Of a stretch of DNA of 64,000 nucleotides, positions 15,001-24,000 are shown piece after piece. Source of the DNA: an uncultured Gammaproteobacteria bacterium (lineage in GTDB: Bacteria > Patescibacteriota > Patescibacteriia > UBA1558 > GWA2-36-10); contig CAZEWH010000001.1 of assembly GCA_964515785.1 (NCBI GenBank), positions 134,941-198,940 on the forward strand. Direction: 5' to 3'. The position numbers were made by a program. Each line of letters begins with the position of its first letter. Within the stretch, counting starts at the first letter, position 1.

Positions 15001-18000
15001 TATTGCCACAGCTTAAAGAAAAAATAGGCAATATTATTTTTTTGGTTTTGGGTGATGGTCAAGAGTTAGAAAATTTAAAAAAATTAGCCAAAGAATTGAA
15101 TATTAGTGATAATGTAAAATTTTTGGGTAGAATAAGTCATGACAAAATAATAAATTATTTTCAGGCATCTGATTTGTTTATTTTAAATACAAACTATGAA
15201 GGTCTTTCTCATACATTGTTGGAAGCCATCAAAGCAGGTACACCTATCATTACTACTGATGTTGGTGGCAATCCAGAAGTTATAGACAATAATAAAAATG
15301 GTTTGTTGATTAGTTATAATAATACAGATCAGTTATTGCAAGCAGCTATTAAAATTTTGAGTGATCAAAATTTGGCTGATAGGTTTATTGCTGATGCCAA
15401 AATTAAATTATTAGAATTTGATTGGAAAAACACAATAAATAATACAGCTAAACTAATAAAAAGTTTCAAATAATGAGTAGAGCATTACTTATAAATCCAC
15501 CCTTTAATATAGCCAAAGAAAATTATGATTCTTCAGTATCTGTTGGTTTGCTTAGTATTGCTTCTTTTGTAGATAGCAAAGATCAAGACATAAAAATTAT
15601 AGATGGCGTTAGAGAAAAAGATTACATTAATAAAATAAAAGAAGAAGCCAAAAATTGTAAGTACGCTGGTATTTCAGTTATGACTACCCAGATTTCTGAT
15701 GCTCTCAAGATTTCCAAAATTATCAAAGATATCAATCCAGATTGTAAAATAGTTTGGGGTGGTGCTCATCCAACTTTTTTCAAAGAACAAAGCATCAAAT
15801 CTGATTTGATTGATATTATCTGTATAGGTGAAGGTGAAGAAACCTTTTATGAAATTATTAGTGACAAAAAATTAGATGATATTTTAGGGATTATTTATAA
15901 AGATAATAAAAATATCAAAACAAATCCACCACGACCACTACATAATCCAGCTGATATGCCATTGTTTAATTGGTCTTTGATAGATCAAACAGTCTTAGAC
16001 AATTTGGCTTATGTTCCATCATTGACTTCGCGTGGTTGCCCGCATTTATGTACTTTTTGTATCAATGCTATTTTGAAGCTTAAATGGAGAAAAAGAACTA
16101 CAGAACAAGTATTAAAAGATTTAGAAATTATACAGAGCAAAGAATATTTTAAAAATAAACAACTTAGATTTTGGGATGAAAACTTTTTTGTAGATATCAA
16201 GCGGGCCAAAAAAATAATAGACGGTATGATTGCTAAGAATCTGACTATGCCTTGGGAAACAACTGTTCGCGCCAATTATTTGCGCTCAGGCATGATTGAT
16301 GATGAGTTTATGGCCAAACTCAAAAAGTCAGGTTGTTATTTACTTTCTTTTGGAGCTGAATCTGGTTGCCCTCGTATTTTGAAAAAAATCAAAAAAAATA
16401 TTGAGCCAGAAGATATTTTGAATTCTGCCAAGATGTGTTTGCGCCATGGGATCACACCACAATATTCTTTTATGATTGGTCTGCCTGGTGAAAAAAAGAG
16501 TGAGATGATGGCTACACTCAAGCTTATAGACAAGCTAGTCAAACTTGGCGATAAAGTAGAGATATTAGGACCACAAGCATTTCGTCCTTATCCTGGTTCA
16601 GAATTATACGATGAATGTTTACAATCTGGTTGGAAAGCACCCGAGTCTCTAGAAGAATGGGCTCATCTAGTAGAAAACGAATTAAATTATCTGACAGTCC
16701 AAAATTTTCCTTGGGTCAAACACAAAGATTTTGTAGAATCAATGGAAGCTTATGTAAGATTTGGAGCGCATAGTATCAAGAGTGCGATGGGTTCTAGTGT
16801 TAAAGCACAAAAATTTATCAAATTGGCTTTTGTTTTATTATGCAAGTTGAGATGGAAACTAAAGTTTTTTACTTGGCCTATAGAATTTAAATTAGCTAAA
16901 AAGTTTGTAGTCAAATAATAATATGGCTAAAGAACTAAAAGATATTTCTATTTTGAAAATAAGTTCAGATCCAAACTTGCTGGAAAGAGGTGTGGGTGTT
17001 GATGTAGTGACCAGACATCAAGAGTATGCTAAAAGTCTGAAGCGCCTTGATATTATTGTGATAGCCAAACATCATCGCAAAATCAATGATTTATCAGATA
17101 ATTGTAGAGTTTATTGTGTAGGTAATGATGTAGTAGCAGCTGACAAAGCTATATTCAAAGGACAACAATTATTTCATCGTTATAAATATGATTTGATTGA
17201 CGCACATGATCCCCATCTAATTGGTTGGATTGCTTATCAGTTATATCGCAAATACAAACGTAAATACAAAACCAAGTTTGAAATTCATTTTCATGGAGAT
17301 TTTTGGAACAATAAAATTTGGCTCAAAAAATCTTGGAAAAATAAATTATATAATCGTTGGCAAAAAAAGATTACCAAAAAAGCAAACGCTATTAGAGTGG
17401 TCAATCCTTTGATAAAAGAAAAATTAATCAAAGCTGGAATTGCTGCCAAAAAGATTGCTATTATCAATAATCCAGTCAATGAAACTGATTTTATGGCTGG
17501 AGTAGTGCCAGAAAAAATACAAGCTATTCATTTGATGTATGGTGAAAAAAAGATATTACTTTTTGTAGGAGATTTTGTTCCTGTTAAAAATCTTTTGTTT
17601 TTACTCAAGATTATTAGTCAACTCAAAAAACAAAGAGATGATTTTGTATTATTAATGATTGGTCAAGGTAATCAGCAAGATATTTTGACTAGTGCTATCA
17701 AAGCCAATGGTTTAGAAAAAACAGTATTTTTAATAAAACCACAAAGTCATTTACGCTTGGTAGCTTATTATCAATCAGCTTATTTGGCTGTCCTATTATC
17801 TAGTCATGAAAATTTTGGCAAAATGATTGTTGAGGCTGGTATGGCCAAGGTGCCTAGCCTAGCTTCAAGAACCTTAGGAGCTTCAGCTATTATTGATGAC
17901 AAGCATACTGGCTGGTTAGTTGATATAAATGACGAAGTAAAAACTTTAGAAAAATTAAATTATGCTTTAGATCATGAGGATGAAGTCAAAAAAATAGGCA

Positions 18001-21000: not shown

Positions 21001-24000
21001 ATTGAAACTACTTAATAAAAAAGCAGACATTATGCTTACTGCTTCCAAAGAAAGTTTTCGTCTAGCTAGTGACAAATTAAAAGTTTTGCATCATGGTATA
21101 GATACTGATATTTTTTCTTTTAAATCAAAATTTGAACATGAAGGATTAAGATTATTATCTGTTAGCCGTATTTCCAATACCAAGAAAATAGACTTGATGA
21201 TTGATATAGTAGATAAATTAAAAAACAAATTCAACCAAAAAGTTATTTTAAAAATAATTGGCGTACCAACATTAAAGCAAGATAAAAAATATTTGAATAA
21301 TTTAAAAAAACAAGTTAAAAAATTAGGCTTAGAAAATAATATAGATTTTGTTGGTTCAGTAGCCAATGATCAGACACCAAAATTTTATCAAGAAGCAGAT
21401 ATATTTTTGAATTTTTCTGCTACTGGTAGTTTGGACAAAACAGTATTAGAATCTATGTCCTGCGGCACTTTGGTTTTAGTAGGTAATGAAGCTTTCAAAA
21501 CTATCTTGAGTCCAATCAATAATTTATTATACATAGAAAATTTTGATGAAATATCTGATAGAATTTTTAAATTATTAAAAATAGACACATCAGAATTTTT
21601 ACAAAGTTTACGACAGTATGTGATTGACTATCATAGTTTGGATAGTTTAGCTAAAAAAATAATCAAACAATTTGATGAAAAATAAAGTATTATTAATATA
21701 TCCTAAATTTTATAAAGTTGATTTTGATGCCAAGAGTTTTCCTCTTGGTTTGATGGCTATTGGTACATTGATCAAAAAACAAGGCTATGATGTAGAATTG
21801 ATAGATTTTTTGGTTGAAGATGATCCACAAAAGATATTGAAAGCAGCCCTGGATGAAACAGTGTTATGTGTAGGTATTTCAGCTATGACCCCTCAGATTG
21901 CTAATGCTTTGGAAATAGGTCAGTTTGTTAGGGATTATAATAAAAATATTCCTATAGTTTGGGGAGGTATTCATAGTACTCTTTTTCCTGACCAAACTAT
22001 TGAGCATGATTTAGTGGATTATATTGTAAAAGGCGAAGGTGAAATTTCTTTTCCAAAATTATTGAAATTTTTTAACAAAGAGAATGATTTAGATAATGTA
22101 CCTGGTTTAGTTTATAAAAAAGATAATAAAATTTTTAAAAATCCTGAAGGATCTTTAATCGATCTCAATGATTTGCCAATGTTGGATTATTCATTATTAT
22201 CTCCTAAAACAATAAACTTTAATTCAGTAATACTAAATACTAGTCGTGGTTGCCCATTTCGTTGTACTTTTTGTGTCAACATTGCTTTGCACAATCGTAA
22301 TTGGCGTTTTCAGAATGCTGATAAAGTATTGGATGAATTAGATTATTTAATAAATAATTTGGGTTATAAAAAATTGAAATTCCAAGAAGATAATTTTTTT
22401 GTCAACAAACAAAGAGTCATTGACATTATGGATGGTATCAAAGAAAGAGGTTTAAAATTTAATTGGTTAGGAAATTGTCGAGTTGATTTTTTTAGAGAAG
22501 GATATATTGATGACAAATTTTTGGAACAACTAAAAGCATCTGGTTGTTACAAATTGATGTTTGGAGCAGAATCTGGCTCACAACGTATTTTGGATTTTTT
22601 GAAAAAAGGTATCAAAGTTGAACAAATTGTCAAAGCTGCTGAAATGTGTCAAAAACATGGAATTAGATCCAATTTTTCATTTATGTGTGCTTTGCCAGGA
22701 GAAACTAAAAAAGAAAGAATCAAAACATTAAAATTAATAGATAAATTAATCGCCATTGGTAATTTGGTAGAGATTATTTCACCACAACCATATCGTCCAT
22801 ATCCTGGTGATGTATTAGCTCGTCAATGTGAAGATTTAGGTTTTCATTTTCCAAAAAAATTGGAAGACTGGCCAGTTGTTGTGGCCAAATCTTTGGATAG
22901 TAGTTCTAGTAATTTAGAAGATTTTCCTTGGATTGAAAATGCAAATGAAATTAGATTGCAAAGAGTTTGTTCTATGATTGTGACAAGTAGAAAAACAATC
23001 CGTGATTATATCAAAAGATATCCTATATATTTGTCTCCATTTATAGTTATATTTATTAGCTTTGAAAAATTAAGATGGAAATTGAAATTTTTTGGTTTAC
23101 CAATAGAATATACTTTGTTTCTTAAAATATATTGGATTACACAGAAGTTGCGTAAAAATCGTTTATTTGCAGCTATAAAAGCATAATTATGCAGTACAAA
23201 AATTTTTTATATAAAATTACAGAATATTTAGATAATAATTATTATTGTAAGAAACACAAGATTGAACATACTGGGAAGAATGCTTATGCTCTTGAATTTT
23301 ATGTTGCTTCTAATCAAATAGACAAAGCCAAAGAATTAGTTTTTAAGATTATAGCCAAAGCTAAGCAAGATGGTAATAAATGGGTTTTTTATCCTGGTAG
23401 TTTTAATCATTATAATAAATCTAATAATATTGTTGATTGCGGATCTACTATTGATTCTTTATCAAATTTTATGGCAGCTCATCAAGATATTTTCAGTCAA
23501 TCAGAATTGGATAAAATTAATGATATTTTACACAAAGTAGCCTACACTTATTTATCAAAAGCAGTCCTTGGCAAGCCAATTACAAATCAGAGATTGTGGG
23601 GTTTAACTGGTTTAGCATCTTATTATAATTATAAACCTGATCCTAAATTATTAGATATTATAAAAGAATCTATTAAGATTTCTCTAGATGAGATGACCGA
23701 CGATGGATTTTTTATATATAATCTTCACACAGACAAAACCAAGAGTTTTTCTGGCTATAGAGGACTGACTACATATTATCAATCTAGATGTACTGCTTTT
23801 ATATATTATGCTATTGCCAAAGCTCAATTAGATTTAGATTTATACAACAAAAAATTAGAACAAAGTATCACTGCTTTACTTAGTATGTACAAACAAGTAG
23901 GTTACAAAGATTTAAATCTAGAATGCAAACATTGGTATTGGCTGAGTGATTATGAAGTAGCTTCTCATACTTTTGATATTTATGCTCTATCCCAATCAAA

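Follow-up and report, generated by a model that had tools for sequence, protein, structure and literature searches.

Radical S-adenosylmethionine (SAM) enzymes of class B, in which a B12-binding domain is joined to the radical SAM domain, are known to tailor sugars in a small number of antibiotic pathways and in the making of hopanoid head groups. Most of the characterised members that act on sugars are C-methylases, such as GenK and GenD1 of gentamicin, Fms7 of fortimicin and MoeK5 of moenomycin biosynthesis (PMC9204698). GenK, GenD1 and Fms7 act on the assembled glycoside, not on a nucleotide sugar (PMC9204698); MoeK5 acts early, on a lipid-linked monosaccharide, within a glycosyltransferase cluster (PMC3814723; PMC9204698), and co-clusters with Fom3 and HpnJ in a published similarity network (PMC9204698). 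Here, we analysed a 64-kb stretch of DNA from an uncultured bacterium (contig CAZEWH010000001.1, positions 134,941 to 198,940; hereafter the window), which is AT-rich (~30% GC), carries nearly all its genes on the + strand and encodes three enzymes of this type, rSAM_A, rSAM_B and rSAM_C, among GT4 glycosyltransferases. We conclude, with about even confidence, that they are anciently diverged class-B-type tailoring enzymes amid a conserved surface-glycan operon of Patescibacteria, with methyl-cobalamin-dependent radical C-methylation as their likely chemistry. Taken by its parts, tailoring of a glycan in some form appears quite probable, and cobalamin-dependent C-methylation by these enzymes comes at or just short of an even call. 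What was computed here is the domain content and fold of the enzymes, their paralogy and orthologue families, and the synteny and mosaicism of their loci; that they act on a glycan, in what order, by methylation and with cobalamin is what we infer.

Like GenK, GenD1 and Fms7, the three enzymes of the window have the two-domain class-B architecture and are encoded among glycosyltransferases and sugar-tailoring genes, a likeness drawn from architecture and context. In contrast to those enzymes of actinomycete secondary metabolism, whose substrates are soluble pseudo-oligosaccharides, they belong to a locus with Wzx/Wzy-type cell-surface glycan genes and have orthologues that are near-universal in a phylum-level group. 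MoeK5, likened to them by description, is a proposed parallel for a class-B methylase working on a lipid-linked sugar. The moenomycin cluster also encodes the carbamoyltransferase MoeM5, which the NodU-like carbamoyltransferase of the window parallels; its product differs, however, being an antibiotic on a phosphoglycerate-isoprenoid lipid and not a Wzx/Wzy product. A wider analogy with moenomycin was dropped, as the AsnB-like gene of the window is WbuX-like (acetamidino sugars) and not of the MoeF5 type. HpnJ (hopanoid cyclitol ether) and Cds (calditol synthase) are similar in that both are proposed to remodel a hexose or hexosamine freshly attached to a lipid by a glycosyltransferase, ring contraction by HpnJ itself being unproven. 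They differ in that rSAM_A, which scores 153 bits where the HpnJ cut-off is 577.6, falls outside that family, and in that the window is without hopanoid or tetraether genes.

A Pfam search found PF02310 (61-78 bits against a cut-off of 32.1) and PF04055 (69-96 bits, above its curated cut-off) in rSAM_A, rSAM_B and rSAM_C, confirming an earlier, sequence-only reading of this DNA in which three class-B-type radical SAM genes had been recognised. The motifs which that reading ascribed to each protein were found with one exception: WGGxH and CxxxCxxC occur in all three and GEGE in rSAM_A and rSAM_C, whereas rSAM_B has SEGE. The cluster motifs of the three enzymes are CPHLCTFC, CPFNCSFC and CPFRCTFC, with cysteines that are invariant in a 74-sequence alignment; in rSAM_A, CPHLCTFC lies at position 189, WGGAH at 95 and GEGE at 119. 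The motif KLRWKLKFF is common to rSAM_A and rSAM_C, as had been noticed, and rSAM_B has RIRHRFF at the aligned position. The C-terminal tails of all three proteins are strongly basic and aromatic (a net charge of +5 to +10 in the final 45 residues), a hint of membrane-proximal action; in an amphipathic-helix test, other parts of the proteins had a higher hydrophobic moment than these tails.

An AlphaFold2 model of rSAM_A, built on the 74-sequence alignment (mean pLDDT 91.2, pTM 0.89), has an N-terminal beta/alpha domain. Its top matches in a Foldseek search of the PDB were MgmA/QCMT (9CCB), OxsB, TsrM, CysS, TokK and AprD4, the entries 9CCB (E 3.9e-21, template-modelling (TM) score 0.74), 5UL4, 6WTF, 9N1B and 7KDX all having a probability of 1.00, and sequence searches of the PDB returned the same set of enzymes. 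9CCB is the MCR glutamine C-methyltransferase (PMC12931638). MgmA/QCMT, OxsB, TsrM, TokK and CysS, the best matches of the model (E 4e-21 to 1e-16, TM up to 0.74), share with it a Rossmann cobalamin domain at the N terminus and a partial TIM barrel after it, together with the GG and GEGE motifs. These solved cobalamin radical SAM enzymes differ in sequence (14-20% identity) and in substrate (protein glutamine, a nucleoside, tryptophan, and carbapenam and cystobactamid intermediates), and the basic aromatic C-terminal helices are specific to the Patescibacteria family. The cobalamin-domain fold proposed earlier is thus recovered as the predicted fold of rSAM_A, the protein whose model the fold evidence covers. 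By sequence criteria the three proteins are class-B radical SAM enzymes, and rSAM_A is one by its modelled fold.

The coupling of these enzymes to GT4 glycosyltransferases is the rule in the Patescibacteria group and not a peculiarity of the window. A scan of metagenome contigs specific to the rSAM_A family yielded 80 loci, whose reading frames were called mechanically and typed by their best BLASTP match to window proteins; counts refer to loci with enough flank on the relevant side. The gene directly upstream of rSAM_A is a GT4 best matching GT4b in 57 of 64 evaluable loci, and GT4a stands two genes upstream in most (33-93% identity). Directly downstream lies either a GT4 (35 loci: GT4d-like in 33 and GT4c in 2) or rSAM_B (8 loci) in 43 of the 61 loci that could be evaluated, with an unclassified gene in 15. 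Across class-level lineages of Patescibacteria, rSAM_A is 65-87% identical, and it is glycosyltransferase-adjacent in ~90% of loci. The pairing had been described as hard-wired; this holds for position, but the GT4 upstream of rSAM_A is swapped (27-29% identical) in the closest relatives of the window. The recurring block consists of GT4r on the - strand, then GT4a-GT4b-rSAM_A-(rSAM_B)-GT4d-GT4e-(rSAM_C)-unk-GT4f-(fourth radical SAM gene), and was found in loci L005, L085, L086, L110 and others. A GT4d-like gene lies 3' of rSAM_B in these four, among others, and rSAM_C follows GT4e in L008, L085 and L086. At least two B12-type radical SAM genes are present in 20 of 34 loci of at least 12 kb, and three or four in five loci. 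The arrangement of the window itself occurs in at least four independent metagenome assemblies, indicating that it is not an assembly artefact.

Named close homologues come exclusively from metagenome-assembled genomes of Patescibacteria/Parcubacteria, with lineages that include Magasanikbacteria, Buchananbacteria, Kuenenbacteria, Portnoybacteria, Zambryskibacteria, Falkowbacteria and Gribaldobacteria, in keeping with the reduced-genome host that had been supposed. Two GTDB records, L006 and L008, carry 66% identical A-type and C-type orthologues in a typical Patescibacteria gene order, yet are labelled 'uncultured Gammaproteobacteria', probably through mis-binning or mislabelling.

Because the order rSAM_A-GT4c-rSAM_B-GT4d resembles a repeated unit, the locus had been taken for a set of tandemly duplicated modules. 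This would mean that a module of one radical SAM gene and one GT4 gene was recently duplicated in situ and then diverged. The glycosyltransferases are compatible with such an event: GT4c and GT4d are mutual best paralogues (33% identity, E 1e-50, every other GT4 pair being at E 1e-28 or worse), and IHFHGDF, NKxWL and ANAIRV are confined to them among nine GT4s tested, indicating that these are not generic GT4 features and that the paralogy claimed for the pair is real. By contrast, rSAM_A and rSAM_B are 29% identical and rSAM_B and rSAM_C 31%, while the closest radical SAM pair is rSAM_A and rSAM_C (38.5%, E 3e-110), a mismatch to the closest GT4 pair. Each enzyme also heads an orthologue family of its own, with more than 120 clusters at 63% identity or above for A, more than 120 at 60% or above for B, and ~37 at 65% or above for C, after which identity drops to ~42%. 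In the 74-sequence alignment, identities across Patescibacteria are 56-87% within families (A, 65-87%, mean 71%; B, 56-86%, mean 67%; C, 64-87%, mean 72%) and 26-42% between them (means 30-38%). The split therefore predates the spread of the families across Patescibacteria, and on these sequences A, B and C are ancient paralogues. In at least eight loci, moreover, rSAM_B follows rSAM_A directly, with no GT4 between them.

Comparison at the DNA level shows the local gene order to be a mosaic. Its closest relatives, L087 (an 812-kb contig; 84% nucleotide identity, and 96% amino-acid identity in rSAM_A) and L088 (80% nucleotide identity), are collinear with it save in three places. A GT4 of 27-29% identity stands in for GT4b, with rSAM_A retained at 92-96% identity; exactly 18100-20641, that is rSAM_B and GT4d, is absent; and homology stops after GT4e. 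L005, L085 and L110 are likewise collinear but lack exactly 16908-18098, that is GT4c, a gene which follows rSAM_A in L087 and L088 and is present as a partial copy in L089. Relatives thus carry A-c-e or A-B-d-e, and the window joins elements found apart elsewhere with breakpoints at gene ends, a pattern that either insertions or differential losses could account for and a recent tandem duplication could not. Given the identities, the orthologue families and the indel boundaries, we reject recent duplication, which is hardly credible; as judged from these alignments, the order A-c-B-d-e-C arose by gene-precise cassette gain or loss among old paralogues. The alternation of radical SAM and GT4 genes that had been described is an interleaving and not a strict one, since GT4e (20606-21685) sits between GT4d and rSAM_C. 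The GT4b swap (14332-15472 of the window against 6810-8000 of L087, and L088) is variation between strains such as O-antigen and capsule loci also show.

What the enzymes may do can be set out as a pathway. A polyprenyl glycosylphosphotransferase would prime the lipid carrier, and the lipid-linked oligosaccharide would be lengthened at the cytoplasmic face by soluble or peripheral GT4s. At set stages between the GT4 reactions, the near-universal rSAM_A and, as optional cassettes, rSAM_B and rSAM_C would modify an unactivated sugar carbon, the likeliest chemistry being methyl-cobalamin-dependent radical C-methylation as in GenK, GenD1 and MoeK5. A Wzx-type protein would then flip the completed unit, and Wzy_C/TPR proteins would polymerise it or pass it to an acceptor. 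Position in a tight glycosyltransferase operon together with conserved adjacency makes a glycan by far the most economical reading of the substrate. As rSAM_A remains 92-96% identical while the adjacent GT4 is swapped, it may act on a conserved inner part of the glycan and not on a variable outer residue. A hint in favour of methylation comes from the residue aligned to the lower-axial N186 of OxsB and R69 of TsrM, which is a conserved Met (M70 of rSAM_A), hydrophobic lower-axial residues having been linked to radical methylases and polar ones to non-methylases (PMC12931638).

The substrate might instead be a lipid (of the carrier or the membrane, compare Gmm, GrsA/B and the ladderane enzyme) or a peptide or protein (compare ApyD and MgmA), for example the 1220-amino-acid secreted protein encoded in the window. 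rSAM_C has as its best NCBIfam match ApyD, an enzyme of ribosomally synthesised and post-translationally modified peptides, and the lipid family TIGR04072 (ladderane) is matched too, but both matches are far below the family cut-offs. The best structural match, MgmA, is a protein methylase, and where related radical SAM genes form multi-copy arrays, as in Bathyarchaeia and further lineages, they are often without glycosyltransferase neighbours; in Patescibacteria, however, glycosyltransferase genes directly flank these enzymes on either side in the great majority of loci, the reading frames overlap, and neither precursor-peptide nor lipid-synthesis genes were seen in the operon. A non-glycan substrate is therefore considered very improbable.

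Several observations weigh against C-methylation of a glycan by these enzymes. At their cut-offs, no NCBIfam model was matched by rSAM_A, rSAM_B or rSAM_C, and the best sub-threshold matches diverge: HpnJ (TIGR03471) for rSAM_A (153.2 bits, ~40 bits over the next family; rSAM_C 135.5 and rSAM_B 114.2, against a cut-off of 577.6), BchE (TIGR02026) for rSAM_B (156.7 bits) and ApyD (NF050148) for rSAM_C (171.8 bits), which also scored 144.2 against PhpK (TIGR04479) and 150.7 against BzaD (TIGR04385). The cut-offs of the latter four, 450-750 bits, were not reached, nor were those of HpnR and of KedN5, the sole NCBIfam model for the sugar C-methylating class-B enzymes (41-56 bits against 700). With all matches sub-threshold and pointing to unrelated functions, a curated family assignment was rejected and none of the family names can be carried over. 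For HpnJ, contraction of the ring of a lipid-attached glucosamine has been proposed, and the best solved sequence relative of rSAM_B (E 3.5e-17) is a sugar diol-dehydratase, AprD4 (PDB 6FD2) of apramycin biosynthesis. This radical SAM 1,2-diol dehydratase, which acts on the sugar ring of a glycoside, is similar in overall fold (TM 0.70 to the rSAM_A model), but in sequence it resembles the Patescibacteria proteins in the radical SAM core only, and these proteins retain the motifs of the cobalamin domain. In other genomes, class I methyltransferases are encoded beside the Patescibacteria-type enzymes as stand-alone genes or are fused to them, so that methyl groups could come from that source.

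Such points, with OxsB as the second-best structural match, would also suit a different chemistry on the same glycan, in which at least one of the three enzymes would carry out a non-methylating radical reaction on the lipid-linked sugar. This could be ring contraction to a carbocycle or cyclitol (proposed for HpnJ and Cds, shown for OxsB), 1,2-diol dehydration giving a deoxy sugar (AprD4), epimerisation or oxidation. We regard this as rather unlikely, because the family matches lie so far below their cut-offs, because methylases are the majority of characterised class-B enzymes, and because the aligned lower-axial residue is hydrophobic, in contrast to the polar residues of OxsB and TsrM, which do no radical methylation. 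The lower-axial argument for C-methylation draws in turn on pairwise sequence alignment and on a trend across seven structures. As the flanking GT4s are exchangeable and rSAM_A is nearly invariant, the acceptor sugar cannot be assigned from the neighbouring genes. Our literature search returned no prior description of these enzymes in glycan loci of the Candidate Phyla Radiation/Patescibacteria, and no biochemistry for any member.

Cobalamin use can be questioned in the same way. Neither a cobalamin uptake gene nor a cobalamin riboswitch was found within the 64-kb window, and an Rfam scan of the window found no family. AprD4, which matches the rSAM_A model and has the same two-domain fold, is not known to use cobalamin and was reportedly crystallised without it. 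The B12-binding-like domain could then be structural only, with enzymes that are cobalamin-independent and a host that has no cobalamin requirement. However, S-x-M-T-x-Q, WGGxH and GEGE of the N-terminal domain vary little or not at all among the A, B and C families, which are otherwise ~30% identical, and this speaks for a cofactor domain that is functional. The GG(x)H and GEGE motifs align with GG(P)H and GEGE of cobalamin-bound TokK and MgmA and with the equivalent residues of TsrM and OxsB, whereas the phmmer alignment to AprD4 is limited to the radical SAM core. A purely structural domain is accordingly judged improbable.

The features of the locus are collected in Table 1. Reading frames abut or overlap throughout 13164-25824, where the gene order is GT4a, GT4b, rSAM_A, GT4c, rSAM_B, GT4d, GT4e, rSAM_C, unk492 and GT4f; the stop of GT4b and the start of rSAM_A share one base (TAATG, 15471-15475). 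GT4e probably has its true start 3' of the TTG at 20606, gene callers giving 347-359 amino acids, and rSAM_C probably starts at the ATG at 21675, which gives a protein of 503 amino acids identical to P0121. PF00534 was found at 63-152 bits in the ten GT4 reading frames of the cluster; PF13439 passed its cut-off in eight, fell short of it in 24664-25824 (24.9 against 28.5) and gave no match in 20606-21685.

Table 1. Features of the glycan locus in the window
Feature	Position	Strand	Basis or remark
TPR protein	within the ~35-kb glycan region
Two tandem paralogous Wzy_C+TPR polytopic membrane proteins	7363-9540, 9553-11853	+	PF04932 75-80 bits, above cut-off; 11-12 hydrophobic segments
GT4r, divergently transcribed glycosyltransferase at left edge of block	11902-13113	-	Pfam
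GT4a, first glycosyltransferase of operon	13164-14324	+	Pfam PF00534/PF13439
GT4b, directly 5' of rSAM_A	14328-15473	+	Pfam
rSAM_A, B12-binding-domain radical SAM enzyme, core member conserved across Patescibacteria	15473-16918	+	PF02310+PF04055
GT4c, lineage-restricted paralogue of GT4d	16923-18098	+	Pfam; 33% identity to GT4d
rSAM_B, B12-binding-domain radical SAM enzyme, optional cassette member with own orthologue family	18099-19553	+	Pfam
GT4d, after rSAM_B, or after rSAM_A where rSAM_B is absent	19534-20664	+	Pfam
GT4e glycosyltransferase	20606-21685	+	Pfam PF00534
rSAM_C, B12-binding-domain radical SAM enzyme, rarest family of the three	21672-23186	+	Pfam
unk492, conserved soluble protein (492 amino acids) of no known family, after rSAM_C position	23189-24667	+
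GT4f, closes conserved block	24664-25824	+	Pfam
PMT_2 GT-C enzyme	25814-27217	+	Pfam
Polyprenyl-phosphate-type GT2, three C-terminal transmembrane helices	27199-28074	+	Pfam
GT4g	28071-29201	+	Pfam
NodU-like carbamoyltransferase	29208-31079	+	PF02543+PF16861; NodU NCBIfam match below cut-off
SGNH/GDSL protein	31066-32154	+	PF13472
SxtJ-like small membrane protein	32271-32702	+	PF19588
Fusion of N-terminal glutamine amidotransferase (GATase) and WbuX-like N-acetyl-sugar amidotransferase	32724-34751		WbuX 146 bits against cut-off of 203
LPG_synthase_TM protein, then a further GT4	within the ~35-kb glycan region
Radical SAM/SPASM (twitch-type) enzyme, fourth radical SAM of locus	36792-37844	+	Pfam
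MetW-like class I methyltransferase, overlaps SPASM gene	37841-38572	+	Pfam
Wzx-type flippase	38547-39812	-	PF01943, 72.7 bits
Polyprenyl glycosylphosphotransferase (priming)	39812-41179	-	PF02397; TIGR03025 378.9 bits against 295.55

For unk492, no Pfam or NCBIfam match was obtained, and a single-sequence AlphaFold2 model was unusable (pLDDT 37.5); orthologues are present in L005 (65% identity), L085 (67%) and L117 (38%). GT4f has orthologues (40-61% identity) at the equivalent position in many loci, and in most long loci GT4r precedes GT4a in the reverse orientation. The sole strong terminator, with a 12-bp stem (11864-11890), is upstream of the operon, and a sigma-70-like site, by consensus match only, occupies 13122-13150 in the intergenic gap before GT4a; as promoter-like sites over the region are no more numerous than in shuffled sequence, this site counts as suggestive. 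Matches in the terminator scan were likewise no more numerous than in shuffled sequence, and those inside the operon are weak, with 6-bp stems at 15757-15771 and, within rSAM_B, at 18377-18391 on the operon strand and another on the opposite strand near 29140.

The block is embedded in a glycan-assembly region of ~35 kb that holds ten GT4s, a GT2, a PMT_2 GT-C enzyme, two Wzy_C proteins, a Wzx protein and a priming transferase, and its Pfam/NCBIfam content bears out the glycan-operon setting assigned to it before. By gene content it qualifies as a Wzx/Wzy-type locus, a priming transferase, a Wzx-family flippase and a Wzy_C-family protein being encoded together; the priming transferase, the flippase and both Wzy_C proteins lie in units neighbouring the radical SAM/GT4 operon. 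The tandem Wzy_C+TPR proteins appear to be of polymerase, ligase or O-oligosaccharyltransferase type. They are O-antigen-ligase/PglL-like, though the organism is not expected to make lipopolysaccharide, and may be polymerases or protein O-oligosaccharyltransferases. The PMT_2 GT-C enzyme beside the AglJ/ArnC-like GT2 makes up the pair commonly found where a polyprenyl-phosphate sugar serves as donor for extracytoplasmic glycosylation; the best NCBIfam matches of the GT2 (AglJ, PgfS, ArnC-like) are all below cut-off. The GATase+WbuX-like fusion hints at acetamidino sugars in the glycan. All NCBIfam matches of the SPASM enzyme and the MetW-like methyltransferase are sub-threshold, those of the former being best to maturases and far below cut-off.

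Upstream of these genes, an extracytoplasmic-function (ECF) sigma factor and a DUF5667 protein with a single transmembrane segment (610-1161, 1172-2548) are followed by the 1220-amino-acid protein (2936-6598), which is secreted, acidic and rich in Thr, Ser, Ala, Gly and Asp and has no Pfam or NCBIfam match. Its homologues head the same glycan cluster in L003, L005, L088 and L102, and it may be a surface-layer protein and glycosylation target. Downstream (41347-56911) lie a Che-like set (MCP-like, CheW, CheA-like and response regulator) and then type IV pilus ATPase and platform genes, followed by very large proteins with N-terminal pilin methylation motifs (663, 1033 and 422 amino acids, the last with a laminin-G domain).

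A scan of GTDB genomes with a mixed A/B/C alignment serves for context and not for orthologue synteny; most of the matches listed were distant relatives of class B in other phyla. As many as eight or nine B12-binding radical SAM paralogues form arrays within ~20 kb, among the matches listed, in Bathyarchaeia, Elusimicrobiota and unclassified bacterial metagenome-assembled genomes, and arrays of distant class-B paralogues also in Omnitrophota and DPANN archaea. Array loci include L021, L042, L048, L049, L065 and L086, the last being from Patescibacteria with five such genes interleaved with GT4s. Carbamoyltransferases ~50% identical to that of the window co-occur with B12-type radical SAM genes in L017 (an uncultured archaeon), L081 (Woesearchaeota) and L065 (Elusimicrobia). 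As some distant arrays (L065, L017, L081) have GT2, carbamoyltransferase, SxtJ-like and PMT_2 genes, the theme may extend beyond Patescibacteria. In other Patescibacteria, a class I SAM methyltransferase domain is carried by B-type or C-type radical SAM proteins P0151, P0275, P0322 and P0332 (C-terminally in P0151, P0275 and P0332), and stand-alone methyltransferase genes are wedged beside these enzymes in L085, L110, L151, L159 and L164, among others. The fused domain of P0151, a C-type enzyme, showed no similarity to the MetW-like methyltransferase of the window.

What is new here is that class-B radical SAM enzymes form a conserved, modular part of the operons for cell-surface glycans of an uncultivated phylum, for which we found no earlier report. 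For enzymologists, the families offer a very large and sequence-diverse set of small (~480 amino acids) class-B enzymes whose substrate context is set by neighbouring genes. We tentatively propose that Paceibacteria/ABY1 build an envelope glycan or glycoprotein with one to four radical-installed modifications (C-methyl, carbocyclic or deoxy) made on a lipid-linked intermediate, in which the rSAM_A step would be a near-universal core and scavenged cobalamin would be required for surface biogenesis. If so, the chemistry of these surface glycans would be of a new class, and host-dependent, reduced-genome bacteria would be tied by nutrition to their hosts or communities in a way not described before. 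If a glycan is indeed the substrate, envelope assembly in these ultra-small and mostly uncultivated bacteria would depend on cobalamin, a cofactor that they are not known to make, and their envelopes would bear chemically unusual sugars, possibly resistant to glycosidases. Such traits would matter for host dependence, for phage and host recognition and for ways of cultivating these bacteria.

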